Position numbers and translations under genes: made by a program. A stretch of 55,822 bases of DNA from a virus (lineage: Duplodnaviria > Caudoviricetes): the IMG/VR virus record IMGVR_UViG_3300020469_000059, positions 1 through 55,822 of that record. The stretch is one strand, 5' to 3'. The notes below the pieces were generated by a model. That model was not told the DNA's origin. It was given only the letters and a program-made list of their open reading frames with translations, and did no database searches. Each line of letters starts with the position of its first letter. Position 1 is the stretch's first letter. This document shows, piece after piece, positions 1-55,755 of this stretch.

Positions 1-3
1 ACA

Positions 4-342
4 ATGAAAAAAAGCACGACGCATATACCACTAATGAACGGCGATGGAGAAGTAAGATGGGTCTCAGCCCACGGTTATCACTGGGAATGGGAGGGATTCA
101 CATTCGTGATCCACCGTCCGGTTGATCCGAATGATCTCGGAAACCAACCGTTCAAGTCGAAAGGGTGGGTCATGACTGAGACTAATACTGGAGCAAAGGT
201 GAGTGCGTTACCATGCACTACACGTGACGATCTAATTAGCTACATGACTGACAAGCTCAACCTCAATGGGGTTGATAAATTCTCCCGCCTTGTCGCAGCT
301 AACCTCAACAAGCGACGTGATGCGTTGCAAAATAAGGGTTAG
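4..342 (+). CDS. Hypothetical early protein (112 aa)
   Basis: ATG ORF, co-directional with the early block. Confidence 0.7.
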   Translation: MKKSTTHIPLMNGDGEVRWVSAHGYHWEWEGFTFVIHRPVDPNDLGNQPFKSKGWVMTETNTGAKVSALPCTTRDDLISYMTDKLNLNGVDKFSRLVAANLNKRRDALQNKG

Positions 343-355
343 TTTTACATCTATT

Positions 356-413
356 CCCCGCTCCGGCGGGGCGTAGCTCACAGCTACCAGTATGCTGGTG
401 GTTGCGAGCTATG
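356..413 (+). promoter_or_regulatory. Early double-hairpin leader element, copy 1
   Basis: CCCCGC-TCCG-GCGGGG hairpin, then an ~18-bp stem GTAGCTC...GAGCTAT ending in the ATG at 411. Confidence 0.8.
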
Positions 414-641
414 ATAAAGCATGAACATAGAGGGTTTACCCTCGAACTAGATAGGGACGGTGACAACACCGTCTACGCCGACATCTCGAAAGGAGACTTT
501 GTAGGATCGCTCGCAATGGTAGAGGATCTTGGAACCCTCGACCACTACGATGACTGGTCGAAGACCCCAATGAAAGTCCCCCAATCAACGGTGGAATTCT
601 TCCAAAAATGCGAGGAAGAATTCCTCGCCATGACAGACTAA
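411..641 (+). CDS. Hypothetical acidic early protein (76 aa)
   Basis: ORF track 402..641; ATG at 411 sits at the same place in the element as in copies 2 and 3. Confidence 0.75.
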   Translation: MIKHEHRGFTLELDRDGDNTVYADISKGDFVGSLAMVEDLGTLDHYDDWSKTPMKVPQSTVEFFQKCEEEFLAMTD

Positions 642-656
642 CCCTAACAGCTACCA

Positions 657-713
657 CCCCGTTCCGGCGGGGCGTAGCTCTCAGCTACCGGACTCCGGTG
701 GTTGAGAGCTATG
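657..713 (+). promoter_or_regulatory. Early double-hairpin leader element, copy 2
   Basis: CCCCGTTCCGGCGGGG-CGTAGCTCTCAGCTACCGGACTCCGGTGGTTGAGAGCT-ATG. Confidence 0.8.
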
Positions 714-746
714 AGCAAAACAACTGAACCAAGAGACCTACCTTGA
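711..746 (+). CDS. 11-aa minigene or gene remnant (MSKTTEPRDLP)
   Basis: ATG of leader copy 2 reads to TGA at 744-746. Confidence 0.3.
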   Translation: MSKTTEPRDLP

Positions 747-764
747 ACCTCTAACCTAACCGAT

Positions 765-1451
765 ATGAAATTGAACTCAATACACGGCAATAACCGTTAC
801 TGTGGCCCCGCAGCAATCTCCGCGATCACCGGAGCCTCGACAGATGATGCAGCGTATGCCATCCGTCAGAAATCAGGACAGCGTTTCGTCAAAGGCGCAG
901 CCATTCCCCATGTCATCGCTGCCCTCCGCGAATCAGGAGTCTTCGCCGATCAGGTATACTCCGCTCCGGTAGGTAAAGGTCTGACCTTCGCTCAATGGCG
1001 TAGGCACAGCAAAGATGATCGGAAGGCTGGTGTGGTCTATCTCATCGTCGCTGGCAACCATTATCAAGTGGTGTCGGGACGCAAGGCTACCTGTGGTAGG
1101 CTTCGTGAGATTGTCAGCATCGCAGACAAACGTCTCAAGCAACGAGCCAGAGTGTATGCAGTGTGGAAGCTGAGTGCCTCCAAGATCACCCCTCCGTCCC
1201 AGCCCAAACGAGCGAAAGATCTGAATGCCAGCGCAAGGTCGAAGGCCCGAAGACTCGCCACCAAGCACGGATGCAAGATCGACATCGATCAGGGATACGA
1301 CGGCGAGAGAAACCACTACTGGGTCTTCGGCCCCGATCATGTGGAAGCGGACGAAGACTACATCTTCTCCGGCGATCACATAGCATACGATTGGGTCGAG
1401 GTCGTTGATCGAATCGAGAGGATCGCTGCCTTTGCAGAAACGCTCGACTAA
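765..1451 (+). CDS. Papain/C39-like cysteine peptidase-fold early protein
   Basis: N-terminal YCGPAAISAITG and later YLIVAGNHYQVV give a Cys...His pair in C39-like context. Confidence 0.55.
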   Translation: MKLNSIHGNNRYCGPAAISAITGASTDDAAYAIRQKSGQRFVKGAAIPHVIAALRESGVFADQVYSAPVGKGLTFAQWRRHSKDDRKAGVVYLIVAGNHYQVVSGRKATCGRLREIVSIADKRLKQRARVYAVWKLSASKITPPSQPKRAKDLNASARSKARRLATKHGCKIDIDQGYDGERNHYWVFGPDHVEADEDYIFSGDHIAYDWVEVVDRIERIAAFAETLD

Positions 1452-1465
1452 CCCCTAACCGTTAT

Positions 1466-1525
1466 CCCCGCTTGACGGCGGGGCATAGCTCTCAGCCTCC
1501 GGCCAGTCGGAAGTTGAGAGCTATG
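1466..1525 (+). promoter_or_regulatory. Early double-hairpin leader element, copy 3
   Basis: CCCCGCTTGACGGCGGGG-CATAGCTCTCAGCCTCCGGCCAGTCGGAAGTTGAGAGCT-ATG; substitutions mostly preserve pairing. Confidence 0.8.
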
Positions 1526-1708
1526 AGCAAACAAGACATAATTAACCATCCAGATGCCTTCCATTTCTTGACGGTAGCCCATGCAGGTGCTGCCTCAATC
1601 GTGGAAGAACTCAACTCGTTCAATCCCGAAGGAAACCTGATCGCGATTGATGACGATCACCCGAAGTATTCAAAGATCTACATCCTAGATTCTGAATTCG
1701 TATCCTGA
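1523..1708 (+). CDS. Hypothetical early protein (61 aa)
   Basis: ATG at the end of leader copy 3, in frame with ORF 1472..1708. Confidence 0.65.
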   Translation: MSKQDIINHPDAFHFLTVAHAGAASIVEELNSFNPEGNLIAIDDDHPKYSKIYILDSEFVS

Positions 1709-1709
1709 A

Positions 1710-1754
1710 CCCTGAACCGTGTGCCATGCATCATGCATGGCATACCATTCAGGG
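1710..1754 (+). promoter_or_regulatory. Internal-loop hairpin, RNase III-site-like
   Basis: CCCTGAA-cc-GTGTGCCATGC-atcat-GCATGGCATAC-ca-TTCAGGG; no U tract. Confidence 0.55.
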
Positions 1755-1807
1755 GTCACAACGACCCACTGAAACAAGAACCAATAAACCAATAGAAAGA
1801 AAAAACT

Positions 1808-2848
1808 ATGCATCAAATTACAGAAATCGATTCCGTCCTCCGTCCTGCTGGCTCCAAGTATCGCACTTGGCACGGCATTGATACGGAGATCCACCGTCCG
1901 ATCAGCCTTCCGGTTGCGGATGAATACGGAGTGTTGCCAGTTGTCTCGAAAGAGGCACTGTTCACCGCCGGAAGCGATGCTCCGGTCGAGAACTTCAAGG
2001 CTCTCACCGCCATCGATAAGAATGGTGAGAAGCAGACACTCGACGTTGTCAGTGATCGATACAGCATCATTCAAAACGAGCAAGTGTTTCGGACCATGTC
2101 GGAATCGTTCAAAGGAACCGGCCTTGATTACACCCTCTCCTGTATCGGAACTTTAGGAGGACTCAAAAAGTTCTTCATCAGTGTCGCCGTAGGCGATGAC
2201 GCTGGCGGTTTCACCGTCAATGGCGATAAGTTTCACGGCAACGTGAACTTCATCACCAGCCATGACGGTGGCTCGTTCCATGCCCATGACAGTCTCACCC
2301 GCATCGTGTGTGCCAACACCCTCCGCTCCTCGATGGCCGGAAATAAGAACGTAAAGTTCAAGATCCGCCACAAGGGAGATACGAAAGCGAAGTGCGCGGA
2401 TCTCTCCCGCTACTTGAACGGTGTGTTCACTGCCCGTGACGAGTTCGTAGAGAACATGGGCAAGCTCGCCGACCAGCGAGTAGCTGGCGATGACATCCGC
2501 CAGATCGTCGGTGGCTTCTTTGTGAAAGAAGCATTCAAGCGTGGCGAGAAACTTGAAGAGGGTTTCAAGACACGTAGCCTGAACATGATCGACGGCATCA
2601 CTGACCTCGCCATCTCCGGTCGCGGAAACAGTGGACGGTCTCTCTATGATGCCCTCAACGGAGCGACTGAGTTTTGGACATCCGGCGATGGTGTTGGCCG
2701 GACAGCGAGTGCCGGAAAGAAAGCCTACTCTTCCGAATTCGGAAACGCTGCTGCCAGCAAGGAGAAGTTCTCCGAGTATCTGATCAGAGGAGAGTTTGAA
2801 TCCTCGCTTCAGGAAGATACAAAGCGCATCCTCGCCCTCACTTCCTAA
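1808..2848 (+). CDS. DUF932 family protein
   Basis: WHG, VVSDRYSIIQNE, GTLGGLKKFF, SHDG, RIVCANT, IRH and YDALNGATEF motifs typical of phage/plasmid DUF932. Confidence 0.85.
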   Translation: MHQITEIDSVLRPAGSKYRTWHGIDTEIHRPISLPVADEYGVLPVVSKEALFTAGSDAPVENFKALTAIDKNGEKQTLDVVSDRYSIIQNEQVFRTMSESFKGTGLDYTLSCIGTLGGLKKFFISVAVGDDAGGFTVNGDKFHGNVNFITSHDGGSFHAHDSLTRIVCANTLRSSMAGNKNVKFKIRHKGDTKAKCADLSRYLNGVFTARDEFVENMGKLADQRVAGDDIRQIVGGFFVKEAFKRGEKLEEGFKTRSLNMIDGITDLAISGRGNSGRSLYDALNGATEFWTSGDGVGRTASAGKKAYSSEFGNAAASKEKFSEYLIRGEFESSLQEDTKRILALTS

Positions 2849-2853
2849 GTGAG

Positions 2854-2898
2854 TCTTGATACACTGCCCCTTCCGATTGGAGGGGGTAGTAATCAGGA
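2854..2898 (+). promoter_or_regulatory. Internal-loop hairpin abutting an ATG
   Basis: TCTTGAT-ac-ACTGCCCCTTCC-gatt-GGAGGGGGTAGT-a-ATCAGGA followed by ATG at 2899. Confidence 0.5.
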
Positions 2899-3156
2899 AT
2901 GAGCCTGAACTTAAACGATAAAACTAAAATGTATAAGTATACAGAAACAGAGCTTCAATCGCTCCCACCGTCATTCGGCGGCAATAATGAATACGGTTGC
3001 GAGACCGTCACCTGCTTCTCGCCTTCACCTAAGAAGGCGGTAGCGTTGGAGGGAACCATCACCCGCTCCCGTGAGGGAGTCGAGGGCGTCCCCGTCCTCT
3101 TGAATGCGACCCTCGTCGCCCCCAACGGTCGAGTCGTTTTCGACCGTTGGGATTAA
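2899..3156 (+). CDS. Hypothetical early protein (start 2899 or 2929)
   Basis: ORF track; co-directional with neighbours. Confidence 0.6.
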   Translation: MSLNLNDKTKMYKYTETELQSLPPSFGGNNEYGCETVTCFSPSPKKAVALEGTITRSREGVEGVPVLLNATLVAPNGRVVFDRWD

Positions 3157-3178
3157 CCCCTCAACCTGAACCCTGAAC

Positions 3179-3224
3179 CCTGAACCAGTGCTCCCTGTAG
3201 ACGATACAGGGAGCACAATTCAGG
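3179..3224 (+). promoter_or_regulatory. Internal-loop hairpin, RNase III-site-like
   Basis: CCTGAA-cca-GTGCTCCCTGTA-gacga-TACAGGGAGCAC-aa-TTCAGG; same outer stem as 1710-1754, different inner stem. Confidence 0.55.
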
Positions 3225-3228
3225 AGTC

Positions 3229-3579
3229 ATGAAGACTCTTGTGAACAAAAGCAAACTAATGAAAATAACAAATAAACAACTCTTGGATTTCGCGAAGACC
3301 CAAGACCCTCAAGACACGTTCGACCTTAACTCAAGCGACAACTGACTAGCCGCTCAGGCAGCTACTCAGTTGAGTGGCCAACGGCATGGGATGAATGGAT
3401 GGTACGACTTCGCTGTCTTCGGCGAGGGTCTGGAATACACGAATGTATCTCCAGAGTATGCTCGCTGGTGTAAGTCGAGACATGAAGAAGACAGGGATCA
3501 GAGTGATCACACTCCTTTCGAGGACGCAGTCGAAGCTCTGAAATCTTTTGTTGAAAGAGAAGAAAACGAGCGTCGATAA
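3229..3579 (+). pseudogene. Early gene interrupted by one in-frame TGA (pseudogene or readthrough)
   Basis: ATG 3229/3259 reads ...FDLNSSDN-TGA(3343-3345)-LAAQAATQLSGQ... and continues in frame into ORF 3370..3579. Confidence 0.6.
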
Positions 3580-3614
3580 TTTTAACCCTAAAACTAAAGA
3601 AGAAACTAATACCA

Positions 3615-3746
3615 ATGAAAAAGAAACTAATAGACTGGCTCATAGGAGCCGTAATATTTATCGCCTTTCTGGCGGTGATCGGAAACATCGAGGTGTTCCT
3701 TGAGGAGAAATTCCCAACCCCATATGATCTGAAGAGCGATGAATAA
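3615..3746 (+). CDS. Small single-pass membrane protein (43 aa)
   Basis: Read manually: MKKKLIDWLIGAVIFIAFLAVIGNIEVFLEEKFPTPYDLKSDE. Confidence 0.65.
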   Translation: MKKKLIDWLIGAVIFIAFLAVIGNIEVFLEEKFPTPYDLKSDE

Positions 3747-3882
3747 CCTAGAAATCATCGGCCTGATTCTGGCCACGCCTCTGATCGTCATCGTCATCGC
3801 CGCGAGCATGGTCAAGTCAGAGGCTCGCCGTATCGAAAAGATGAAAGCCCGTGCCGATAAGAAGAAAGGGAGGAGGTCATGA
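3739..3882 (+). CDS. Small single-pass membrane protein (47 aa)
   Basis: Read manually: MNNLEIIGLILATPLIVIVIAASMVKSEARRIEKMKARADKKKGRRS; ATGA overlap with next gene. Confidence 0.65.
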   Translation: MNNLEIIGLILATPLIVIVIAASMVKSEARRIEKMKARADKKKGRRS

Positions 3883-4319
3883 TCTACTTCACCGACACCG
3901 ACCCCGACGAGGCAGCGAGCAATCTCTGCGACCGTCACTTGCGGAAGACCGTGAGATTCACCCAAAAAGTGTTCGCGGAAGCCGCTGAGAATCGCACACA
4001 GCATCGCGACCCGTATATCCGGTGGGGCTGTGCCAGTCTCGCGAACTTAAAATGGGTCGTTGAACATGGAAACGCAGCGGCCCATGAGCTTTACTATCGA
4101 TTCCACAAACCCGTCCGAATCGAAGACAGCCTGCCTTTGATCAGGGCCAGAGAGAAGATGGACTCTCTGGCCCTCCCGCCCGTAGACCCTGACGATATCA
4201 TATTCCCTTACTCAGTAGGCAAGGTGAGAGAGTTTTACCGTCTAGAGGTTTTTCCAAATTCGAGATGGACAAGGCGGTATCCGCCTGATTGGATGCACCC
4301 GTCACTTCTGGTGAAGTGA
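3879..4319 (+). CDS. Pyrimidine-dimer DNA glycosylase (DenV-like) family protein, divergent
   Basis: MIYFTDTDP..AA..LCDRHLRK, P.IRW...S..N.KW...HG.....E...RF pattern of phage DenV-like proteins. Confidence 0.6.
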   Translation: MIYFTDTDPDEAASNLCDRHLRKTVRFTQKVFAEAAENRTQHRDPYIRWGCASLANLKWVVEHGNAAAHELYYRFHKPVRIEDSLPLIRAREKMDSLALPPVDPDDIIFPYSVGKVREFYRLEVFPNSRWTRRYPPDWMHPSLLVK

Positions 4320-4342
4320 TTGTTTATTCATAGCATAGCACG

Positions 4343-4377
4343 AAGGAGGTAGGGAGAAATCCCTGCCTCCTTTTTTT
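4343..4377 (+). terminator. Intrinsic terminator ending the early block
   Basis: AAGGAGGTAGGGA-gaaa-TCCCTGCCTCCTT plus T tract. Confidence 0.9.
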
Positions 4378-4388
4378 GTGCCTAGAAA

Positions 4389-4423
4389 TAAGTGGGAAAA
4401 ACCGCCCAGAAATTTCCCACTTA
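4389..4423 (-). terminator. Inverted repeat, possible terminator for the giant gene
   Basis: TAAGTGGGAAA...TTTCCCACTTA in the convergent intergenic region. Confidence 0.4.
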
Positions 4424-4449
4424 CTATCATAGATTAATCCACGCAAGCT

Positions 4450-7400
4450 CTACTCAGATTCTGTAATAGGCCGGACAGGAATGTAGCGGTTGAGCTTTGA
4501 GGCGTGGTCGTAGACCTGCTGCGCTCGCGCCCTGCCGTATTCATCAGTCCTTGGGTCGAGCAGGCTCTCGATAATGTATTTGAACGACGGCCTGTCCATG
4601 TAACCTTTACTCAGTAGAGCGACCCTATCTCGACCAAGCTTCTTATCCTTCATCCCCTTGAGGAGGTCGGTGTCGGTGAGTCCGAGAGAGGCGAACCCTT
4701 TATTGATCCGCATCAGTTCGTAGTTAAGGAGGCGTCGATCCTCGATGTTCTCATCGATGATGTCCGCTACCTCGCCGTCGCTCATAGGGACGTTACGCTT
4801 CACTGCGTTGAGTCCGCTCTTCACGTTGTTGAACCTATTGTTAAGATCCAGCAGGTAACGCGAATACTGTTTCTGGAGATCAACATCATGGATACGGAAC
4901 GGCATCGCGCCGTCCATAATCTCAAGACCCATGCCAGTCAGAGATCCGGTTGACCAGCCCTCGTAAAAATCCTTACCGAGTCGCGGAGCGTATGCCTCCT
5001 TGGCGATGTGGCCTAAGATCTTCGATCCTGCTTCCATCGGACCGTCGGCCCCCTTGTTCCAAATTGGTTTACCCGTTGACGGGTTAAGGTTTCGGCGGGC
5101 CTCAGACACTGCTCCCGCGAGAATCTGATCGTCTAAGTATTGATCCCTCACTAAGCCTAACGCGATGGCGGCTCCCGCTTCAGTGAACTCACCTCTGCGG
5201 ATGTTCTCATACCCTCGCAGGAACGGATCGACCAGTAGCGAGTATGGATTGACGTAGGTCAGGTCAACCGACTTCAGCTCACCGTTCCATCTGTAATAGA
5301 AGAACGTATGCCCTCTGAGGTAATCTGGAATGGATGCACGCATGGCCTCGTCCTCCTCATCCCCGATGCCCGATAGCGCGGCGAGTGCCATAGGAAGAGC
5401 GGAAGAAAGAACTCCTATCGTTCCCATCATTGAGTATTTTCTAAACCTACCTCTCCGAACAAGAACAGGGTTGCCGCTGGCGATCTCCTCACTGGCGAGC
5501 TTGAACGTGTTGATCATGATTCGCGGAACCTCCATCTTGAATCGGATGAACGGGGCGAACAGCAGGCCGAGACCGGACTTCGTGAACGCTGCAACGGCTG
5601 GCGGTGCTTGGCTGTATGCCTGTGAGGTCATGACTACCTTGCGTGCGGCCAGACGCTTGATCTGCGTGTCGCTCATAGCGGCGAGGTTGTTGACCCCCAC
5701 TTTGCCGTCCTTGACCGTGCTTGTGTCGGCGGCTTTTGCTTCCATCAGGATTGCCAACTCATGGTTGTAGTAGACGATCTTGTAGGCGGCGTCGAGAGCG
5801 GCGGATAGATCCTGCGCCTTCTTCTCAATCATCGCTAGACCCTTAGTGACTTTATTAAGTTTCGTCTTTTCACCTAAGTCTTCGATCTGTTTCCTGATGC
5901 CGTCGGGAGTTACCTTACCGTTCAGGAGGTCTCTCAGAACTCCGGCGCGGAGTTCGTCGCCCTTGATGTTCAGGCCGATAAGCTCATTAAGCTCTGGGTC
6001 AATCTCGCCGTCTTTGAAAGGTCTTAGGTCATAAGTTCCTTTCAACATTTCAGAGACCATCTTGTCGTAGCGGAAGAATCCCTGAGAGGTTCCGAACAAT
6101 ATGTTACCGATCCCGTTGCGTAAGTAGAATCCGATGGAGCCTAGAGTCTTAGCTGCCATCGCCTTACCGCTAAGGTTAGCGGCTAAACCAACAACTCCCT
6201 TAACAGCCTTCTCCGCTGTGTCGGCGTATCCCATCGAGAGAGAGTCCATGAGCGCAACGTCCAGAATCTCTTTGAATTCAGGATCTACCAGCATTCCTGA
6301 GAGGGGGTCGTTCTTACTCGGCGCACCCGATCTAGCGGCCTCAAAGTTAGCATACTTGGCGCGGCTCTCTGCGGTAGCTAACTTCTCTTTCACCGTGATC
6401 ATGACGCCAGTTCTCTTGCCGTATGCCACCATCTGGTTCAGGAATGCCTGCTGCGACGCGATTGTCGCGACGGTAGAGTAAGTCCGAAGAATCAAATCGA
6501 TACCGGACTCTGACCCAATTTCGCCGAGAAGATTTCGGATCGGCTCCGGCAGCTCTTTACGGCGTCTGAGGTTGTCCTCAATCATCTTGTAACTTTTAGG
6601 CGTGGCCGTCGTCGAGTCTCTGCCGCCCTTCTCATACTGCATCAAGAAGGTGTTAAGCGAACCCTGCGCGTATGATCCATGTGGGCTGCTTTGGTTCTCT
6701 CTTTCGAGGAGTATGCGAGCTTCAACCTTGGCACGCGACTCGTCCATGCCGCCCTCAAACAGCTCCTTGGCCTTAGTTTTTATGTATTGGTCCTCAAAGA
6801 ACTCCATAGCGGCGTCCCTCACATCTTGATAATCGGGATCTTCCCTCACCTTCTGGAGGTAAGACGAGTCGGTAAACATCCTATAACTGCGGGTAATGTA
6901 GATGCCTCCGGTCTTAGAGATCTTGGCTCCAATATTTTTATCGAGGCCAGAGTCAACGAGTTTCTTCTGCAACGGGATGATCAACTCCTGCCGTATGTCG
7001 ATAATGTGAGCGGCTAGCTCTGGAGAGTCCTTAGCGAGGTCTCTCAGAGCGGCGTCGCGGTCGGCTTCCCTAGACTTTCGGGCCTCTTCGTAAGCTCTAT
7101 CGGTGGCCTCAGTTCTCGCATTATGGGCGAGTCCTTTTAAGGAGTTAGCTTGTTCGTCAGTGATCTCGCCTGCTTTGCGCTTCCTCTCTGCGTCGGCGTG
7201 TGCGTCGTCGTAATCTTTCTCGATAGCGTCAAGCACTTCATCAGTAACCATGTTACCTGTGTAGTGTCCCTGCGCGAGAGCGATCATTTCCATCGGCGCG
7301 TTTTCGTAATCGCCGTAGGTCTCCTTAATGAGTTTATCCATCTTCTTTTTATAGGTGACGACGTTAGCCTCAGTAAGTCGCTTGTAAGCGTCTCGGTTCT

Positions 7401-10400
7401 GGATCAATCGGCGGAAGGCTTCTGGAAGCTCGCCAGCGAACACCTTATTCAGGAACTCCATGATGAAGTTCTGTGGCTTTCCGGTCTCGGTCTCGTATAC
7501 AGGGATCTCAAGGAGATCGACCACTGCGGAGAAGTCTATGTTCGATCCTGTCTGCTGGCCGGACGGCGCGGCTGCGGCTGCGGCTGCGGTGGGGGCTGAA
7601 TACAGAGGTAGTTTTACGGTCTCAGCTCCCTCGTCCGCTTTTCTAAATATAAGTTCGCGTTGAGAAACACCAACGGACGGTGGGAAGATGCTGTCTTCCT
7701 CCGATTTTTTAATTGGATCTGTGTTGCCGTCATAGGGGTCGGCTGCTTTTTTGGGGTTAGGTTTCTTAGCCGAGTAAACTACGTCTTTCCACAGGTTGGA
7801 CTCACTCAGAACGTGGACTACAGGTGTCTCACCCGAAGTGCTGCGTATAGAATATGGGTATGAGTCATGGAAGTCAGTCTCGACGGCTTCGACCTCTCCC
7901 TTCATCGAGAGAACAGCGTAAACCCGCCCAGATGCTTTCTTATCCATTTGCTGAAATTGCTGGAAGGTCTTGACCAGCGGCTCTGCAAAAAGATCTGCCA
8001 TGCCCTGCATGACTGATGCCTGTGCGAGTTTGCCTTGAGGTATGTTACCTTTATTGTATAGGTTCTTGTCACCAGCCAGAAGATCAGCTATGTTCAAAGC
8101 CTGATTTTTCTTTTTATCGAAAGCAGCTTTTTCCTTTGGGCTGAACTTCTTCTGAACTTCCACTGTCGGCAGTTTCATGCTGTCAGCTATTGCTGACGAT
8201 ATCTGAGCGATAAAGGAACCACGTTGTGGGAACACTGACTCTTCAGGGTGGAGATTCTTTTTCATCTCCTCTATGTTTTTAGCCAGTCCGTCTTTCAGCT
8301 TCAGTTTCCTTGAAAATTCTTTGATGGTGGTCGTCTCGACTCCTGTATCTTTGTCTTTCTTTTTAACAACTAATCTCTCTTTACTGGCGTTAACAATAGC
8401 ACGGTTTACGACCGCCTCAGTGATCCCATACTTCTTGGGGTTCTTGGCTAGAGTGGCGAACAGGTTGACCGCTCCCGTAGCCATTGTTGTGGAGCTAAAC
8501 ATCTTCTCGATGGGAGCGGACGTGAGAGCCATAAGAATAGTTCCGTTGTTGCGCTTGGATATCTTGTTAAGGTTTTCCGCCATGTTCACAGCGGCGTCCT
8601 TGGTAGATGCCCAGAAATACCCTTGGTCACCGAACATGACTGGGTAGTAAACACCTCCCTTGCCGTCTACGACCTTATCGCCCTCGACCTCCAGTGTGCC
8701 TGCCATTGCGCCGTCAGGTTGGTGGAGCATGACGGCCATTCCCTCAAACTGGTCGAGGGATTGCTGTATCTTAATGTATCCGTTCTTGATCTTCTCGTAA
8801 AACTTCCCGTCTTCTTTGACGTAGATGTGTTTGACTATGGGATCACTCGCACTGGCGATTTCTGGTGGGGTCTCTATTGGGGCTGAGGAGAGTCTTCTGG
8901 CTGCTCCTCTAATCGGGAGAGAGTCAGGTCCAGTATCAGATCTTGCTGCGCTTGCGAGGATAGGATCTCCTCCGTCTCTTGGAAGAGGGCTTCCAATTCT
9001 TCGTTCGATGTCGTTTCTTTCATAAAGTGTTTCTAAGTAACCGTTATAACTAACGGGCGTTTCTCCAGATTTTCTTATAGAGGCTCCCCATAAAGCGGCT
9101 TGAACTTCTCTGGGTTCCCACCCTAAAGTATTAGCTACTTCAGTCAAGACCTTTTCTGCTTTTTCAAACTGAGCTTTACTAGGCGATGTCTTATTGAAGA
9201 GCATACGAGCAACGTGTCTATCAACAACAACTTTACTCGTATCACCAGCAGAGGCTTTATCGTAGTTAGATATCTTCCTCCCACTCAGCTCTTCATCGTC
9301 CCTGATTTTATCAAGGTTACTAGCTACTCCTTTAAGGTATCCTTTTCCTTTACTGTCGAGGAAAGGCTCCCCCCGCTTCATCTGGCCATACGCTTTAAGG
9401 GCTAAAGCGACATTGGATTTCACACTTGCGGCCTGTGAGGTAGCACTGAGAATTCTCTGGAATAGTTCAGCGTCGGGGCCGAAGTAGTCTTTCAAAAGAG
9501 CTTCGTGTCGATCATAGAAGTCTTTCCAATCTTTTGAGGTTTCAACTGCTTCAATGATCTCTTTTCGGGTCATGCGTAATCTCAAAGAGTTTTTCTTTTT
9601 AACTCTTTTTATAACAGCGTCTTCTACCGGAGCAGACGCTAAACCAACGAAGTCCTGATTCACGGTTCCGAACATCCTGAAAGCCTCCATCGGGTTTTCA
9701 GGATTGAACGCCATCTTCGTGGGCTGGCGGACGAAACCTACCTCGATAGCTCGCATCTCAATAATCAACTTATTGAGGGCGATATCTGCTGCGGCTCCGA
9801 TCTTTTTACGGTTGGCGACCCATCGGTTGATGATCCCCCTAAAGTAACGATTCAGAATCCTAAGTAAGGAAGGCTTTGATTTCCAGAATTGGGTGTCGTC
9901 CTCAGTAGTGAAACCCCGTGTGACCTTCTGGAGGTGCATACGAAGTTTCTCTTCCGCCAACTGATACTTGGCGTCTGCGACTTCTTGAGGGTCAGATGAC
10001 TGAAGTCTCGCCAGCATGGTCGCGAGTCCACTTTCGTTTCCGACGAGGTATTCTTTAGCGATGTCCACGTAGTCTGAGTCAGAAAGACTGTTGATGTAAT
10101 TCTGAATCTCTTCGTCGGTCAAAGCGTTGAAGCTGGCGTTATGGGTCAGCTCCTCGTTGATTATAACACCAGCGATTGCGCGTCCGGCGATGTCACTAAC
10201 GTCGCCTGTCTGGCTCAACATAACAGGCAGGTTTATGAAGATCGCTGAAGAATCAGGGTCCACAAAGGCAGCACTGCCGCCGGACTCAGTAGTGAGTTTT
10301 ATGTCTATGCCCACCGGAACCAGACCCCTGATGTAATTGTATAGTTCTCTTACTTTAGGTCGGTCTGCCTCTGGAACACCTTCAAGGAATCTCTCAGCAT

Positions 10401-13400
10401 CTTCCACGTCTTTCTGACGCTTCGCTTCAAGACGTGCCTGCTCTGTCTCGCGCTGCATCTCGCGCAACGCCTCTGCCCTCTCGATCCGAGACTCGGTTTG
10501 GGCAACTGGTGAACTGTATAACGTCGCTGCATTAGCGACCTGACCGCCCAAAGCTTTGGCGTTGGTGGTCGTTGTCGAGCGGGTATTACCACCCACGTTG
10601 ATAACATCCTCAAGAGATTCTGCTACTTTGCTGGCGTCACCTCTACCTACATTAGGGAACAGCATGGCTAGGTTAGTCAGGAAGCGGGAGAAAAATGAGG
10701 ATCTGTTGGGGGCTGGTTTGAGATCCCTAACGTGCTTCTGCACTTCTTCCGATAACAAGAACTGAGCGGTGAACTCATTAAGATCGACAAGAGCGTTCTC
10801 AAGAGACGGGACGGGTCCGCTTCTTTCTTTCTGCGATTCGTAAGACTCTTTTGCGGAGTCGAAAACAGCGGATAACTGTTTGAGTGTAGTCTGGACTTGA
10901 GACGATTTCTCCGCGATTTGAGCCTCAGTAGCTGAAGTGGTATCAGAAATAAATGCGTGGACGTATTCCTCAAGTAGTGTGTTGACGAGACCTCGACCGT
11001 TTCCAGATGTCACGTTGATAAACACAGTGTGCGAGCCGTCGTTCCCCTTGATGTATTTGCCTGCGATGTCGGCGGTTGTTTCCCCCAACACAAACTTAAC
11101 CCCTTTGATCAAATCAGTGTCACGCAGAAGCAGGTCAGCTACGACTTTGTGAGACGGGTTATCTGAATTTTTAGCGACCTCTTTAAGGGCTTTGATGACG
11201 CTGTCAGGGTTCCCACTCTCAAGACCCAGTCTCTCGATATCAGCCTCGTTCTCAGCCTTGATGGTCGCCCTCTCGGCGGCAGAGATGTTAGATCTCGATA
11301 GGTGGGTGCGGACTGCTTTAGTTAAAGCAATCATTGTGTTCCTCGCCTCGTCAATAGAGATCTGTGTCCCCACGGCGTCAGTGAACAGAGCTTGGAAATA
11401 GCTCACAGCGTCAGAGTTCTCGTAGCTCGCACCGTCCGAGCGGGTTGCGAAGTTGACGAGAAGTAGCGCGTTCAGAAAATCTGTGCCGCTGGTCGAGAGT
11501 TCATTTTTCTCGATAGCATCCACAAGCTTATTAACAGATGGTCTGGTGTCGCCGTTTCCAGATGACATCCATGAAGTAAACAGCCCGAACACGTCTTCGG
11601 CACTCGCGTTCTCAACCATGCCCTTCATCTCAGGAGTGGGGTCGTTCAAGACCTCATCAAGGATAATCTTGTTGACCTCTCTGCGTAAGTCTGGGCTGGT
11701 ATTCACCGCCCCAATCGCGGTGTCTATCGCTCCAGATACTGCGTCGCTTATATCTTGTGGAGAAGCAAGTTCACCGTCAGGGTTACGCCCGAAGTTAGCG
11801 ATCCAACCGCTTACTTTAGCGTTCCTGAACTCAGCGGGGGCTACGTCGAACGGGAGGGTGGAGACCGCTCTCTGTTCTCTAAGGGAGTTGGCGTCGTCCT
11901 GTTGCAACTTAAACTCATCGGTAGCTTTTCTAAGTAGCGTGTCGAAGGTAGGCGTCGCGTTGTTAGCGAAGTCGGGGTTGTTCTGGAGTTTCTGCTCCAC
12001 AAATAATCCTATAACCGCCCCGCCCGTAAGGTTGATGTTAGACTCTACTTTAACAAACGGTAAAAGTTTTTGGGCTGCTTGCTCTACATTTTTAGATCCT
12101 GTCTGAGCCACCACTTCGTCTATAATTGTGGCAGGGTTAGAGAGTAACTTCTCGCGGAGACTGAACAACTGCGCGTTGAACAAGAATTCTTGCTTGGCCG
12201 ACTCTAACGAAGCGGCGTGGAACTCAAGACCACGCTCACCGCTGAGAATTTTAAACCGTGCTTGAACGTCGTCGTTCGTCTCGTCTCCGGTCTTCTCCAG
12301 CTCAAGGGCGAATCTATTGATTCTATTTTTAATGTCAGTAGTGCTAGCGAAAAACTTTCCCTCTATGGGTCCGCCGTTTTCTGGGTCGAAGTCTGCGACG
12401 CCGTTTGGTAGGGCGGCTGGCTTGAACGGGATACTGGCTAAGGCAGCAGCTCTCGCGTTGTTCGGCTCAATCGAACTAACGTCCCTCGCGTTACCGAGCT
12501 TAGACTCTAGCAGGCGACCGTCGGCGGTAGGCCCGACCACGTCAGTAACCCTCCCGTCCGTGATTCGGATAGCGGGGTTGAGGTTTGCCCTATTAAAACT
12601 GCGGGGAACCTTAACGATTCTACCAGACTTCAAGATCTCGATAATGGAGATCGGGTCGTTATCGAATATGCCGTTACCACTATCATCAACAAAAAATTTA
12701 ACGGGCTGTCTTTCGGTCTTACCGGATACGGGATCGAAGTAAGTCCTTTTCGGTCGTTTACTGGTGTCGAGCTTTGCGTTCTTTGGAGGAGCGAGCTTAG
12801 GGTAAGCGGTGTAGACCGCAGAAGCCACAAACTCTGACAGGGACTGCCGTGACGATTCAGACGGCATCGGCAAACCATAGTTTACGTTGGGGTCGAGGTT
12901 AAGCGGGAAGCCGTGGCTGATCGCGAAGTCGATGAGCTTGTTAGCTTTCTCTTCTGCGTCAGGGCCACTGAAGGGAGGGTCATCAAACCTAAGTGTGCCT
13001 GACGACGGCCTTGAAGAATACCGCTTTGACTTAGACGGGTCGAAGCCACGGCTGTTGCTGTTGGTCGAACTTATGTTGGTTCTGGACTCACCTTGAAGGG
13101 AAACACCAACGGACTCTGCGTTAGTTTGTTCTTGGGTGAAGTCGATACTAGGACCGCCAGCGTAGTCTTTAATTTTTCTAGGGGATTTACGACCGTAATC
13201 AAAAGGAGTCTCGGCAGCTGGGACTGAAGGGTCTTCGATGCCCTCAATTTTAAGAACCGTGGTATCCTCACTATTATTAAAGTTGATATTCTGCTGGTTT
13301 CGGATGTTCTCGAAAGCGATCTCAACGTCAAGTGGGCTGGCCTCGTTTAGGGACTGCAAGAACACCTCTGGATCTACCTGCTGGTCAGTAAGTGTAACAT

Positions 13401-16275
13401 CAGGAGTAGTGGGTGACTGTGAGGCAACTCTAAAGTTTTGTTCCTCTTCTGAGAGGGCCATGCTCTCCTGCCCAAGCTCTATTTTCCGTTGTTCGCGGAC
13501 GGCGACCTCGGCTTCTCGCTCCTCCTCATTTTCAGGTAGGGTCGATTCGTCATCGAGTTTAGATATCTCTTGGGCGATCTCCTTACTTCTTTTAGCGTTC
13601 TTTGTTCTTAGTAGCGTCTCCTCAGTAACAGTCTCAGATACCTCTGAGGGGAGTAATGGTGCTGGTTCAGGCGCAGGCGAAGCCGCACCACCCCTTATAC
13701 GGGTCATCATTAGCTCACGAACCTGCGCGGCGGCGAGCGGACTACCTGTTCCTTCAAGCTCAGAAGAAACTTGTTCAGCGAAATCATTCATCATCCGAAT
13801 ACGCTGCTCTAGCTGATCCATCGGGGTAACGCCTAAGCGACCTCCAACGGACTGAATAGCGGGAACACCGCCACCGAGAATACCGCCAACTTGTGCGGCG
13901 TGCCACACCTGCTTCATCCTCTCAAGGATCGGCGTGTCCTGATTAAGTGCCACGTCTTCAACGAATGAATTGACTAACTCATCAACACCTTCTTCAAAAC
14001 CTTCATCGACAACATTCTTTACGATCCTCTTTCCAAGAGTAGCGGCCCCATACTTCTTGATGGAGTCGTTCATTACTTTTGTCATGGTTATTTTGACGGT
14101 CTCATCAGTGATGCCTCCCGTGTTACCCATTGCTTGGAAAAGCTTTTTAGATTCTCTAAAGGTCATGCCTTTAAGCAAGGCGTCCTCAACACCTCCGCGA
14201 CCTATCGCACTGAAGCCAGAAGTGATCACACCTGTGATCGCGCCAGAGGTTATGGCAAAGCCTAAAGCCCTGTCGTGGGCTTCCTCTTCGGTGAGGTTAG
14301 GGTCTTTACGTAGCTGGTTGTAAAGTGAGCCATAGCTCATCGCTCCGCTGCGTGTGGCTGCTGGAACGAAGGTCGCGACCCCCAAATTAAACTTACTGGA
14401 GGCTGCTTTGTTAAATGCTTCGATAGCTTCGATGGTCTTGTCGCGGCCTCCTTTTTCCGCCGACTCCCTGATAAGATCTTTAGCGGCCTTCTCTGCCACT
14501 TCTTTATAACCTTCTTTCGAGCTAGCTCTAAGAACATTACTGGTAAGTGCTTTACCTAGTCCCTTAGCGGTGAGCTGCGCTCCGCCTTTCGTGATACTTC
14601 TCACGGCCAAGTAACCCGCTCCAGCAGCACCACTGGAAACTGAAGCTAACACAGTCGTAGCGGCTATGTCCACGATAAGGGGCGCAACACTTTCGGACAC
14701 GTCTTGGAACAGGCCGTATTGCTCACCAAAAATCTGCGCGACCTCGCGGCGGTCAGACTGTCTCTGAGCCGCATTAGAGAGACCGTCTTTGGCCCAGTCC
14801 GCGCCCATAGCAGCGGGAGCGATATACAGAAGGCTGGCGACAGAGTCCCAGACAGAGTAGGCGATTCCCTTAGCACTGTCCAAGTATTCATTGAAGTTCT
14901 CATCCTTAGCGATGAAATCATCGAAGATGTCTAGGTCATCTCTTCCGGCCTGTCTGCCGGACACAAGAGCTTTCGCCCAGTCGTCACCGACGGCGGACTC
15001 AGACAGGAGCTTGCTGTAGCTCGCGAAGTTTTGTTTGAGAACCTGAACACGGTTATCGGTGAAAAGTTTTTTCTGCTGGGCGGTAAGTTCAGGGTGCGCG
15101 GCAAGAGTATTAACCATGTCCTCTTCACGGGCAAAGACTGCGGGGTTCAGGACTGGGCCAAGCGCGGTCTTGTAAAGGTTCTTACCCGCTTCAGACGGGT
15201 CTTGATGTAACTTAAACGCTCCGGTCCTAGCTCCCTCATTAATAACATGGGCTTCGTAAGCTGCGCGGACATCGTCGGGGCTGTAATTAGCTCCAGAACC
15301 GTTCAGCTTCTCAGTGACATACTCAATCGTATCGTCAAAGGATTGGCGGCTAGCGATATAAATCCTCTTTTTCTTGGAGTTGCTCTCCTCCGATTCAACG
15401 CCAGCAAATGTCAATAGATCGCTAATTCCCCGCGTGACGGTTCCACTTACAGAATCAAAAGCATTCTGATCTTTTCTGGCGAGTTGGCGAGTGTGTCCGG
15501 TAACGTGTTCCGCAACTGAGGCGTCCTGTTGGGCCAACTCAGCGATGCCTTCGGAGATCTCTGCGATCTGCTTGAATTTGTAAAGTTTAACGTCAAGCCC
15601 AGCGACAGGGGAAAGAAGCTTTTGAGCTACCAGACCGTCTTTAAACGACACACCTCCGATCTTGGAGGCTTTGATCGCCTGATTTACGGTCATGTTCTCG
15701 GCGGCGTCGCCGACTAACAGTTCGCGCTCGCCATTTTCATTAGTGACATAAGCCAACGGAATCTGGTTACTCTCCACCAGATTTCTCTTAACCTCATCAA
15801 ATCGGCGGTTAACAACTTCTTCAGACTTTAGTTTAAGACCAGCTATTTTATCTTGGTAAGGCTGGACAGTACCACCAGCGGCTACGACTTTCTCGCCTGC
15901 CTTATACTCAGTGAGGGTCATCCAGTCTTCGTCATCACTGTTCAGTCCGGCGCGGACATACTCAAACTTTTCCTCAAACGACGGCTCCTTGGTAGCTGTA
16001 AGAGCTTGAATAGCTTCTTCGTCTACCACACCGAGGTCAGCTAACTTAGAATTCAGTGATCCACTAATCTCTCCTTCAACACTAGGGGTGTAAGCCCCCT
16101 GTTCAAGGTAGCCCTCACGGACGTAATCCGAATACTGGACGTAGCTCTGAGGGTCAGCTTCGGTTAATTGATTCTCCTCTGACCAAACAGAAAAGGGTTT
16201 AAGTTCGGGCGGTTTAGGAGCCTCTGTGATCAGAGACTTATCAAAGTCGGTAAGGGAAGAATTCAAATCAGTCAT
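4450..16275 (-). CDS. Giant (3941 aa) modular internal virion/ejection protein of large polyvalent protein type
   Basis: Ala/Gly-rich amphipathic N-terminal region, two zincin-like EExxH segments, an HhH-glycosylase-like domain and a helical C-terminal domain typical of podovirus internal proteins; last gene of the ejection cluster. Confidence 0.8.
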   Translation of the reverse strand: MTDLNSSLTDFDKSLITEAPKPPELKPFSVWSEENQLTEADPQSYVQYSDYVREGYLEQGAYTPSVEGEISGSLNSKLADLGVVDEEAIQALTATKEPSFEEKFEYVRAGLNSDDEDWMTLTEYKAGEKVVAAGGTVQPYQDKIAGLKLKSEEVVNRRFDEVKRNLVESNQIPLAYVTNENGERELLVGDAAENMTVNQAIKASKIGGVSFKDGLVAQKLLSPVAGLDVKLYKFKQIAEISEGIAELAQQDASVAEHVTGHTRQLARKDQNAFDSVSGTVTRGISDLLTFAGVESEESNSKKKRIYIASRQSFDDTIEYVTEKLNGSGANYSPDDVRAAYEAHVINEGARTGAFKLHQDPSEAGKNLYKTALGPVLNPAVFAREEDMVNTLAAHPELTAQQKKLFTDNRVQVLKQNFASYSKLLSESAVGDDWAKALVSGRQAGRDDLDIFDDFIAKDENFNEYLDSAKGIAYSVWDSVASLLYIAPAAMGADWAKDGLSNAAQRQSDRREVAQIFGEQYGLFQDVSESVAPLIVDIAATTVLASVSSGAAGAGYLAVRSITKGGAQLTAKGLGKALTSNVLRASSKEGYKEVAEKAAKDLIRESAEKGGRDKTIEAIEAFNKAASSKFNLGVATFVPAATRSGAMSYGSLYNQLRKDPNLTEEEAHDRALGFAITSGAITGVITSGFSAIGRGGVEDALLKGMTFRESKKLFQAMGNTGGITDETVKITMTKVMNDSIKKYGAATLGKRIVKNVVDEGFEEGVDELVNSFVEDVALNQDTPILERMKQVWHAAQVGGILGGGVPAIQSVGGRLGVTPMDQLEQRIRMMNDFAEQVSSELEGTGSPLAAAQVRELMMTRIRGGAASPAPEPAPLLPSEVSETVTEETLLRTKNAKRSKEIAQEISKLDDESTLPENEEEREAEVAVREQRKIELGQESMALSEEEQNFRVASQSPTTPDVTLTDQQVDPEVFLQSLNEASPLDVEIAFENIRNQQNINFNNSEDTTVLKIEGIEDPSVPAAETPFDYGRKSPRKIKDYAGGPSIDFTQEQTNAESVGVSLQGESRTNISSTNSNSRGFDPSKSKRYSSRPSSGTLRFDDPPFSGPDAEEKANKLIDFAISHGFPLNLDPNVNYGLPMPSESSRQSLSEFVASAVYTAYPKLAPPKNAKLDTSKRPKRTYFDPVSGKTERQPVKFFVDDSGNGIFDNDPISIIEILKSGRIVKVPRSFNRANLNPAIRITDGRVTDVVGPTADGRLLESKLGNARDVSSIEPNNARAAALASIPFKPAALPNGVADFDPENGGPIEGKFFASTTDIKNRINRFALELEKTGDETNDDVQARFKILSGERGLEFHAASLESAKQEFLFNAQLFSLREKLLSNPATIIDEVVAQTGSKNVEQAAQKLLPFVKVESNINLTGGAVIGLFVEQKLQNNPDFANNATPTFDTLLRKATDEFKLQQDDANSLREQRAVSTLPFDVAPAEFRNAKVSGWIANFGRNPDGELASPQDISDAVSGAIDTAIGAVNTSPDLRREVNKIILDEVLNDPTPEMKGMVENASAEDVFGLFTSWMSSGNGDTRPSVNKLVDAIEKNELSTSGTDFLNALLLVNFATRSDGASYENSDAVSYFQALFTDAVGTQISIDEARNTMIALTKAVRTHLSRSNISAAERATIKAENEADIERLGLESGNPDSVIKALKEVAKNSDNPSHKVVADLLLRDTDLIKGVKFVLGETTADIAGKYIKGNDGSHTVFINVTSGNGRGLVNTLLEEYVHAFISDTTSATEAQIAEKSSQVQTTLKQLSAVFDSAKESYESQKERSGPVPSLENALVDLNEFTAQFLLSEEVQKHVRDLKPAPNRSSFFSRFLTNLAMLFPNVGRGDASKVAESLEDVINVGGNTRSTTTTNAKALGGQVANAATLYSSPVAQTESRIERAEALREMQRETEQARLEAKRQKDVEDAERFLEGVPEADRPKVRELYNYIRGLVPVGIDIKLTTESGGSAAFVDPDSSAIFINLPVMLSQTGDVSDIAGRAIAGVIINEELTHNASFNALTDEEIQNYINSLSDSDYVDIAKEYLVGNESGLATMLARLQSSDPQEVADAKYQLAEEKLRMHLQKVTRGFTTEDDTQFWKSKPSLLRILNRYFRGIINRWVANRKKIGAAADIALNKLIIEMRAIEVGFVRQPTKMAFNPENPMEAFRMFGTVNQDFVGLASAPVEDAVIKRVKKKNSLRLRMTRKEIIEAVETSKDWKDFYDRHEALLKDYFGPDAELFQRILSATSQAASVKSNVALALKAYGQMKRGEPFLDSKGKGYLKGVASNLDKIRDDEELSGRKISNYDKASAGDTSKVVVDRHVARMLFNKTSPSKAQFEKAEKVLTEVANTLGWEPREVQAALWGASIRKSGETPVSYNGYLETLYERNDIERRIGSPLPRDGGDPILASAARSDTGPDSLPIRGAARRLSSAPIETPPEIASASDPIVKHIYVKEDGKFYEKIKNGYIKIQQSLDQFEGMAVMLHQPDGAMAGTLEVEGDKVVDGKGGVYYPVMFGDQGYFWASTKDAAVNMAENLNKISKRNNGTILMALTSAPIEKMFSSTTMATGAVNLFATLAKNPKKYGITEAVVNRAIVNASKERLVVKKKDKDTGVETTTIKEFSRKLKLKDGLAKNIEEMKKNLHPEESVFPQRGSFIAQISSAIADSMKLPTVEVQKKFSPKEKAAFDKKKNQALNIADLLAGDKNLYNKGNIPQGKLAQASVMQGMADLFAEPLVKTFQQFQQMDKKASGRVYAVLSMKGEVEAVETDFHDSYPYSIRSTSGETPVVHVLSESNLWKDVVYSAKKPNPKKAADPYDGNTDPIKKSEEDSIFPPSVGVSQRELIFRKADEGAETVKLPLYSAPTAAAAAAAPSGQQTGSNIDFSAVVDLLEIPVYETETGKPQNFIMEFLNKVFAGELPEAFRRLIQNRDAYKRLTEANVVTYKKKMDKLIKETYGDYENAPMEMIALAQGHYTGNMVTDEVLDAIEKDYDDAHADAERKRKAGEITDEQANSLKGLAHNARTEATDRAYEEARKSREADRDAALRDLAKDSPELAAHIIDIRQELIIPLQKKLVDSGLDKNIGAKISKTGGIYITRSYRMFTDSSYLQKVREDPDYQDVRDAAMEFFEDQYIKTKAKELFEGGMDESRAKVEARILLERENQSSPHGSYAQGSLNTFLMQYEKGGRDSTTATPKSYKMIEDNLRRRKELPEPIRNLLGEIGSESGIDLILRTYSTVATIASQQAFLNQMVAYGKRTGVMITVKEKLATAESRAKYANFEAARSGAPSKNDPLSGMLVDPEFKEILDVALMDSLSMGYADTAEKAVKGVVGLAANLSGKAMAAKTLGSIGFYLRNGIGNILFGTSQGFFRYDKMVSEMLKGTYDLRPFKDGEIDPELNELIGLNIKGDELRAGVLRDLLNGKVTPDGIRKQIEDLGEKTKLNKVTKGLAMIEKKAQDLSAALDAAYKIVYYNHELAILMEAKAADTSTVKDGKVGVNNLAAMSDTQIKRLAARKVVMTSQAYSQAPPAVAAFTKSGLGLLFAPFIRFKMEVPRIMINTFKLASEEIASGNPVLVRRGRFRKYSMMGTIGVLSSALPMALAALSGIGDEEDEAMRASIPDYLRGHTFFYYRWNGELKSVDLTYVNPYSLLVDPFLRGYENIRRGEFTEAGAAIALGLVRDQYLDDQILAGAVSEARRNLNPSTGKPIWNKGADGPMEAGSKILGHIAKEAYAPRLGKDFYEGWSTGSLTGMGLEIMDGAMPFRIHDVDLQKQYSRYLLDLNNRFNNVKSGLNAVKRNVPMSDGEVADIIDENIEDRRLLNYELMRINKGFASLGLTDTDLLKGMKDKKLGRDRVALLSKGYMDRPSFKYIIESLLDPRTDEYGRARAQQVYDHASKLNRYIPVRPITESE

Positions 16276-19312: not shown

Positions 19313-19328
19313 TCTTCGGGATTCGGGT

Positions 19329-55711: not shown

Positions 55712-55755
55712 GTGTCGGTGGATCGACAGGATGGCGGGACGTTGCTCTGCATCGT

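Follow-up and report, generated by a model that had tools for sequence, protein, structure and literature searches.

The phage DNA analyzed here, positions 1–55,822 of the IMG/VR virus record IMGVR_UViG_3300020469_000059 and referred to as the window, comprises the whole of this linear record of 55,822 bp, which has an estimated completeness of 96%. The record codes for a terminase, a helicase, an exonuclease, a DNA polymerase and a primase-like protein, and lysis enzymes and glycosyltransferases are also among its products. Small genes on the + strand are clustered at positions 1–4319. Within this early cluster a signal of ~75 nt is repeated three times. This element comprises an upstream motif (X), a small GC hairpin (HP1) and a long hairpin that includes the ATG start codon of the next open reading frame (ORF). 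The three copies and the ORFs considered with them are located as follows.

1–342, + strand: first ORF, whose true start lies beyond the left end of the window
349–354, + strand: upstream motif X of copy 1 (ATCTAT), which in part complements the 5' base of the long stem
356–371, + strand: copy 1 HP1, 6 bp with a TCCG loop
372–413, + strand: copy 1 long hairpin with 19 opposed positions, loop at 391–394, ATG 411–413 paired at the base
411–641, + strand: 76-residue ORF starting at the copy 1 ATG
649–654, + strand: upstream motif X of copy 2 (AGCTAC), which complements GTAGCT at 674–679
657–672, + strand: copy 2 HP1, a GC hairpin
673–713, + strand: copy 2 long hairpin, loop at 692–694, ATG 711–713 paired
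711–746, + strand: 11-residue stub ORF starting at the copy 2 ATG
765–1451, + strand: 228-residue ORF that has an ATG of its own, preceded by a leader without structure (-2.6 kcal/mol)
1460–1465, + strand: copy 3 upstream motif X, CGTTAT
1466–1483, + strand: copy 3 HP1, 7 bp
1484–1525, + strand: copy 3 long hairpin, ATG 1523–1525 paired
1523–1708, + strand: 61-residue ORF starting at the copy 3 ATG
4450–16275, - strand: 3941-residue ORF coding for a giant virion-type protein, in which only a weak DUF7178 match is recognizable

Stop codons at 340–342, 639–641 and 1449–1451 precede the copies by 13–15 nt. An initial annotation of the window had recognized the three elements at 356–413, 657–713 and 1466–1525, each just after a stop codon, and these coordinates and the anatomy hold. 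The second hairpin, which it described as a 17–20-bp stem with the ATG in the 3' arm, required correction in part. The ATG is located there, but the stem consists of 19 opposed positions, all three ATG bases are paired and the two hairpins abut one another, and the C immediately following HP1 pairs with the G of the ATG. Folding of the three copies as sense RNA yields energies of -41.3 to -45.7 kcal/mol (z -6.4 to -7.3), values equaled by none of 200 shuffles, and folding as antisense RNA yields -32.6 to -39.9 kcal/mol. A 15-nt core of the element occurs exactly three times in the window, on the + strand only. When up to three mismatches are allowed, the core has 7 matches versus 2.1 expected, a count reached by none of 100 shuffles. 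As noted initially, no U run follows the GC hairpin, and none of the three copies is overlapped by a terminator-like site of the hairpin-plus-T-run type. In the related contigs L078 and L181, the homologues of the first ORF begin at the ATG of an element, located four codons 5' of window base 4, and a fourth copy of the element lies just beyond the left end of the window.

Relatives of the window were found by pattern scans of viral contigs and by a protein search with the DUF932 gene. Five related records, 37–58 kb in length, carry 2, 2, 5, 2 and 1 copies of the element. A covariance model was built from the 15 copies of the window and these five records and was then run over whole records. 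Its full-length matches, 14 in five whole records and one in a sixth, are confined to the early cluster and to the sense strand; the other matches are weak antisense ones to the palindromic long stem, plus two at E 0.7–0.9. A scan of metagenome contigs returned at least 120 stretches, 80 of which were examined. The model matched 18 of these 80 loci, the remaining 62 being without a match, and the metagenome loci added 36 sequences after duplicate removal, counted among the matches listed. The total set contains at least 51 copies, 48 of them distinct, from 21 loci. In viral contigs the 15-nt core was found in 73 stretches. The only two with more than one match, L032 and L072, were inspected and both contain real elements; one of the 71 single-match stretches, L008, later proved genuine and the remaining 70 are presumed to be chance matches. 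A pattern scan of viral contigs for a second element subtype returned three stretches, none of which matched the model; thus, the second subtype is known from metagenome contigs only.

Searches for a described counterpart gave no match. The Rfam comparison proposed in the initial annotation returned no family over the elements at E up to 10 (window 1–5000), nor at E up to 0.1 in the loci of four relatives. Window positions 640–730 had no blastn match in 50,697 records of cultured phages, and no published description of such an element was found in the literature, supplements being outside the search. The covariance model also found no copy in a more distant relative, L079 (66 kb; DUF932 protein 51% identical). 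As a separate observation, L079 carries at 2872–8188 seven copies of a different intergenic element, made up of a small GC hairpin, 45 conserved nucleotides and an A/C-rich leader. One copy precedes each small early gene, in a layout that resembles the phage cassettes called PeSLs (promoter-early stem-loops).

The fold of the element is conserved across its copies. In the long stems of the 48 distinct copies (median 19 positions), 95.9% of opposed positions are paired. At the 11 stem positions that vary on both sides, 93.2% are paired compared with 76.1% after partner shuffling, none of 1000 shuffles reaches the observed value, and the figure is 29–38% in slid registers. The first 15 copies gave 95.7% of cells paired, with 9 of 25 pairs changed on both sides, 36–49% in slid registers and none of 500 shuffles as high. 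The initial annotation had observed in the three window copies that the apical pairing is kept despite sequence change; this was borne out on 15 and then on 48 distinct copies, and the homologues recovered with the covariance model covary. Counted from the base, stem positions 1–6 are essentially fixed (5' C-R-U-A-G-C opposite G-C-U-A-U-G 3'), positions 7, 8, 9, 11, 12, 15, 18 and 19 alternate between different Watson–Crick pairs, and positions 10, 13, 16 and 17 are C:G in a single orientation. At position 14, 28 copies have U.G, 13 have C.A and 5 have C:G. The long stems, referred to as class 1, contain single mismatches at most.

HP1 retains its form only: 5–8 bp, GC-rich, with loops of 3–9 nt, mostly 4 nt, of which UCCG (13/48) and UUCG (12/48) are examples. 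Its stem sequence is wholly replaced between subtypes (CCCCGC, GCCACC, GCGGA, CGCGGC and GCCGCC types), and different subtypes sometimes occur within one contig. The spacing between HP1 and the long stem is 0 nt in 42 of the 48 copies and 1 nt in five. Because 11 stem positions compensate and HP1 is replaced wholesale, selection on structure, not on sequence, is strongly supported.

The conserved structure is better formed on the sense strand. The long stems contain 90 G.U cells versus 18 A.C cells, and the + strand is the more stable in 40 of the 48 copies (mean -42.3 vs. -36.1 kcal/mol). Exchange between U.G and C.A preserves wobble geometry, a pattern typical of RNA, and position 14 exhibits this exchange. 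DNA hairpins are disfavoured by the strand asymmetry.

The same asymmetry bears on the proposal that the element is a DNA hairpin or cruciform promoter of the type used by phage N4, at which a virion polymerase, perhaps residing in the 3941-residue protein, would start each early transcript. The two are alike in that N4 early promoters are also small GC-rich hairpins repeated at the first-entering genome end of a phage with a giant virion protein, and their 5–7-bp stems compare with the 5–8-bp GC-rich stem of HP1 (PMC4496689). Furthermore, the conserved CRTAGC begins ~10 nt past the HP1 loop, near an N4-type start, relatives have a terminator-like hairpin ahead of their first copy, and the DNA folds are stable on both strands. 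However, the N4 hairpins require conserved bases from -17 to +1 and a 3-nt loop, and act on the template DNA strand before the start site (PMC4496689). HP1, by contrast, is free in sequence, even within a contig, and most of its loops have 4 nt; the wobble bias is toward the non-template strand, and the AUG is contained in a further, long hairpin. A transcript begun after HP1 would start with this long hairpin and its AUG would still be locked. Nor was a polymerase signal detected in the giant protein: Pfam and PHROGs gave only DUF7178 and phrog_3842, NCBIfam gave nothing, the PDB yielded no sequence match, simple catalytic-motif patterns were absent and the protein atlas returned only DUF7178 at 0.80, all of these being searches that are blind to a very divergent fold. 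Among the 50,697 phage records it has a single relative, annotated as a 'structural protein' in Flavobacterium phages (residues 2474–2871, 35% identity). Taken together, an N4-like promoter is improbable.

The element ends exactly in an ATG in all 51 copies, and in 50 of them this ATG begins an ORF of at least 60 residues, two of which run off their contigs. The only exception is copy 2 of the window with its 11-residue stub. The 50 ORFs belong to 28 families, which answers the suggestion of the initial annotation that different genes might follow the element in related phages; almost none of the cassette proteins has a Pfam or PADLOC match. The first 14–28 nt of the stub resemble the 5' ends of cassette genes of relatives, and the stub is therefore likely a remnant, in line with the cassette turnover that, according to the initial annotation, it would fit.

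The window and its close relative L181 are near-identical over the upstream gene, the last 110 nt of which are identical, and over the element, and are unrelated from the ATG on. Because the homology ends exactly at the element ATG, the elements are cassette boundaries. From the conserved control region up to the DUF932 gene (83–85% identical), distinct sets of small genes are present in the window, L077 and L078. One gene family is found behind different element subtypes, and the reverse is also seen.

This reassortment, together with the 28 gene families, the homology switch at the ATG and the stub remnant behind copy 2, is what would be expected if the element were primarily a recombination linker, its repeats existing to swap early ORFans and its hairpins being attenuators or incidental. 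PeSLs of T4-type phages provide a parallel. As described in PMC2839356 and PMC4122927, these intergenic cassettes contain a GC-rich stem-loop and have the start codon of a small ORFan at their end; they flank ORFans, cluster in a plastic early region and act as crossover points for gene exchange, and the element resembles them in all these respects and in its length (~75–100 nt). PeSLs also include a Shine–Dalgarno sequence and a sigma-70-like promoter (PMC2839356). Neither is conserved in the element, in which the corresponding space is occupied by the covarying 19-bp hairpin. Moreover, recombination requires sequence identity rather than pairing, whereas the compensatory changes and the replacement of HP1 show that the fold is selected. 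Exchange of genes is better seen as a consequence of the repeats, compatible with a function in RNA, than as the function of the fold, and a primary role in recombination is quite unlikely. The initial annotation had also considered ssDNA hairpins or recombination handles that make early genes exchangeable; the exchange is supported by the 28 families and the L181 break, and the ssDNA-hairpin part is disfavoured by the strand asymmetry.

The genes behind the element appear to be started without a canonical ribosome-binding site. Genome-wide, most gene starts are without a Shine–Dalgarno sequence and are preceded by A/C-rich stretches, clear exceptions being the starts at 3879 and at 41012 (- strand gene 40272–41012). 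No canonical Shine–Dalgarno sequence precedes the element ATGs. The absence noted initially thus stands for the canonical motif, but the 3' arm of the stem contains GGNRG-like purines at -14 to -10, of which GGTGG is found in 28 of 49 copies. These purines may serve as a weak ribosome-binding motif that is sequestered, or may be read by a nuclease as a determinant. Downstream of the ATG, positions +4 to +30 contain 54% A, compared with 27% later in the ORFs.

Immediately 5' of HP1 lies the conserved sequence YTAAC-N-GCTAY, whose last six bases complement the 5' base of the long stem. When the AUG hexamer was forced to be single-stranded, the predicted fold lengthened HP1 through pairing with X and retained the upper 13 bp of the long stem. 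The mean cost of freeing the AUG in this manner is 7.3 kcal/mol, versus 10.1 kcal/mol with shuffled flanks; in 46 of 51 copies the cost falls below the mean of the shuffles, and no more than three of 60 shuffles perform as well for 28 of the 51. The fixity of stem positions 1–6 would be expected of a hexamer with two obligatory pairing partners, one of them including the start codon.

Such an arrangement could operate as a translational lock or operator that requires no cleavage, in which the hairpin shuts the AUG and a protein, or the alternative pairing of X, opens or closes it and so times the early, possibly toxic, proteins. Start regions are regulated at the RNA level by the MS2 replicase operator hairpin and by T4 RegA. 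The AUG is paired in 48 of 48 distinct copies, the conformer that frees it is enriched over shuffled flanks, the invariant positions 1–6 together with the oriented C:G pairs at 10, 13, 16 and 17 look like a protein-recognition surface, and the GGNRG at -14 to -10 could be the sequestered ribosome-binding motif. Yet the closed form is favoured by a mean of 7.3 kcal/mol, such that the AUG would nearly always be shut unless a cut or an active factor intervened, and branch migration over 6 bp should be fast and leave no kinetic window. No RNA-binding protein or helicase was recognized among the early ORFs, and the abutment of HP1 and the long stem is left unexplained. A lock of this kind is therefore unlikely. 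The translational switch considered in the initial annotation gains a new component in motif X, which can pair with the 5' base of the long stem and free the AUG, but the ~7 kcal/mol by which that conformer is on average less stable counts against a free equilibrium; the X pairing would therefore matter after a cut.

Beyond the three copies, the early cluster contains hairpins of a second class and a terminator.

1706–1758, + strand: class-2 hairpin with a lower stem, an internal loop and a 12-bp upper stem
2854–2898, + strand: class-2 hairpin ending directly before ATG 2899
3174–3229, + strand: class-2 hairpin, ATG 3229 being 4 nt past the lower stem
4342–4383, + strand: hairpin-plus-T-run terminator with a 14-bp stem, the only canonical one after a gene end in the early + cluster

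The class-2 hairpins consist of a 6–7-bp lower stem (CCUGAA/UUCAGG or a variant), a 2–3-nt internal loop and a 12-bp upper stem, with z values of -4.7 to -6.4. The upper stem of the hairpin at 1706–1758 is a different complementary pair in L077 and L078, i.e., it covaries. The RNase III signals of phage T7 have an internal loop, and the class-2 hairpins, not the long stems of the element, possess this feature. The one sigma-70-like site that overlaps copy 3 (1514–1542) spans the ATG and has no conserved counterpart in copies 1 and 2; around the L077 copies (4800–7700), no such site was scored. Neither an RNA polymerase nor an RNase was recognized among the ~40 ORFs scanned.

Two abutting hairpins in the sense RNA, with copies located upstream of structured intergenic regions, also recall the put RNA of phage HK022, an antiterminator made of two adjacent hairpins. 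An element of this type would act on RNA polymerase and make it read through downstream stops. The repetition of the element before each gene, rather than once per operon, its exact end at the ATG in all 51 copies and the freedom of the first-hairpin sequence to vary render this very improbable.

The reading that we rank first, tentatively and at somewhat less than an even chance, is that the element is an intercistronic RNA element of a polycistronic early mRNA made by the host, at which a proposed RNase III-type cut caps the upstream mRNA and frees a short-leader AUG. It is ranked first because the early cluster appears to be one operon with a single canonical terminator, because of the helix length and the sense-strand wobble bias, and because the operon contains T7-like internal-loop hairpins and no phage RNA polymerase was found. 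The structure and its covariation, the position and strand of the element, the ORFs behind it, the operon terminator and the cassette boundary are directly supported. Likely function and position would place the element with the known intercistronic processing hairpins and the phage early-region regulatory cassettes. The initial annotation had listed processing sites analogous to those of T7, releasing near-leaderless mRNAs, as one option of three; context, size and strand bias fit that option.

Transcription through the element, the cut, the enzyme, the cut site and strand capture are inferred, and the proposed sequence of events is as follows. Host RNA polymerase would transcribe the cluster as one RNA, from a promoter 5' of the first copy to the terminator at 4342–4383. 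In the uncut transcript the next AUG and ~16 nt before it would be locked in the 19-bp helix, and this long helix would stack end to end on HP1 to form a quasi-continuous duplex of ~25 bp. A double-strand-specific endonuclease, most likely host RNase III, would then cut the long helix. The upstream product would end in HP1, and motif X would pair with the freed 5' base of the stem to yield a 3' cap against exonucleases. This capture would release the 3' strand, and the downstream mRNA would begin a few nucleotides before an unpaired AUG. The A-rich unstructured stretch after the AUG may serve as a loading region, which would suit a host that starts translation without Shine–Dalgarno pairing. 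As every cassette bears the same ~75-nt linker, homologous recombination between linkers would swap small early genes. In its strongest form, which is possible but doubtful, the element would be a cleavage-triggered strand-exchange device: a single cut in the ~25-bp stacked helix, followed by capture of the 5' stem base by the upstream hexamer, would produce both a long 3' cap and an irreversibly freed, near-leaderless AUG. As the complete device accompanies each gene, whatever ORF came to lie behind it would be correctly expressed, in a plug-and-play linker for hosts that do not rely on Shine–Dalgarno sequences.

The size of the helix, 19 positions plus the 5–8 bp of the abutting HP1, agrees with the ~20–22-bp size rule of RNase III. 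According to PMC3867540, the idealized E. coli RNase III substrate is 22 bp and cellular helices are ~20 bp or less, the early precursor of T7, ~7000 nt long, contains five RNase III signals, and single-strand RNase III cuts can leave stabilizing 3' hairpins. Like the T7 signals, the elements are repeated hairpins of about two helical turns between early cistrons, just after stop codons, and a 3' hairpin is proposed to remain on the upstream message. They differ from the T7 signals in their almost perfect stem with the AUG paired at the bottom, in the lack of a Shine–Dalgarno sequence, and in having a separate, abutting GC hairpin and an upstream motif able to capture the cut strand. The two share no sequence similarity, and cleavage of the element is a proposal. 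The lambda N leader, an RNase III substrate, and the MS2 replicase operator also have their initiation region in a hairpin, opened by cleavage or closed by protein, which makes translation dependent on an RNA event. These are single sites with a Shine–Dalgarno sequence, whereas the element recurs as a modular linker and most genes of this phage are without such a sequence.

Several points weigh against the processing of a host-made early transcript. The size rule comes from E. coli and may differ in the phage host: close terminase relatives (L238–L241; 76–90% identity) were binned in metagenome-assembled genomes (MAGs) labelled Opitutae, Blastopirellula and Altibacter, which span three phyla. 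The Opitutae MAG (G007) also contains a contig, C34, with three element copies, but phage-contig binning is an unreliable guide to the host. The long stems are without the internal loop of the T7 signals. The fixed orientation of the C:G pairs at positions 10, 13, 16 and 17 suggests recognition by a sequence-specific reader, or a weak Shine–Dalgarno-like GGNRG that is sequestered, rather than a plain helix. Folding with DNA parameters gives -18 to -23 kcal/mol, such that hairpins are possible on both DNA strands. In relatives, the first copy is directly preceded by a hairpin and a short T run; should these terminate transcription efficiently, separate promoters would be required for the early genes. 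In a marine oligo-dT RNA run, 6% of the sampled words of window 1–4400 are present; aligned to the window, the run gave three 151-nt contigs, at 1176–1326, at 1337–1487 and, in part, at 4008–4043, and contigs cannot show transcript ends. On the numerical side, the copies are related, so the shuffle controls of pairing overstate independence; the inward walk of the wobble tally ended early in 6 of 48 stems, and in the AUG-freeing calculation the flank was mis-set in two rows (W3, M2).

Upstream of the first element, L078 (60–440), L086 (~1000–1500) and L191 (390–860) carry an apparently non-coding leader of 300–450 nt that extends from a TTGACC-type -35 box to the element. In L078 the leader ends in a hairpin and a short T run, and it has no Rfam match. 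The end of the window (55746–55822) is a (GTCTG)n array. In relatives (L077, 4600–4900; L181, 5500–5700) the array continues into other short arrays and ~450 nt of non-coding sequence before the first element. The record is therefore broken inside the repeats.

Other repeats were noted in the window. An 81-nt repeat, 91–94% alike at 19326–19406, 55042–55122 and 55161–55241, consists of an A run, a long near-perfect palindrome and a T run, and resembles a two-way terminator or operator at gene-block borders. C-rich, G-poor heptamer arrays (CCCTAAC, CCTGAAC, CCCGAAC) are found right after stop codons at 642–650, 1452–1460, 1704–1726, 3165–3187 and 55604–55626. Tandem heptamers yield stops in all three frames, and one unit is the 5' strand of the class-2 lower stem.

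Three further identities were considered and rejected. An integron attC site would have mutually complementary terminal core sites and an integrase nearby. The upstream YTAAC, however, has no complementary sequence at the 3' end, whose arm is instead paired with the 5' arm of the long stem, and no integrase was detected in the scanned ORFs. A self-cleaving ribozyme, a CRISPR-like repeat or a toxin–antitoxin repeat was dismissed on the lack of an Rfam match and on the copies being separated by genes and not in tandem. A resemblance to a single-subunit-polymerase promoter at 1757–1775 was dropped, the motif being single-copy in the window.

The element would constitute a structured, covariation-supported RNA family of uncultured marine phages of ~56 kb, a group without a cultured or annotated relative. 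It delimits precisely where their early genes are exchanged, and its covariance model provides a handle on the first-expressed phage genes in metagenomes, here 28 families of small ORFans. Small early ORFans are the class in which host-takeover and anti-defence functions are usually found. If the proposed processing is correct, the element would extend T7-type processing of early mRNA to a setting independent of Shine–Dalgarno sequences, in which the cut itself makes the translatable 5' end. If cut and capture hold, the element could be used as a compact insulator between the genes of engineered operons.

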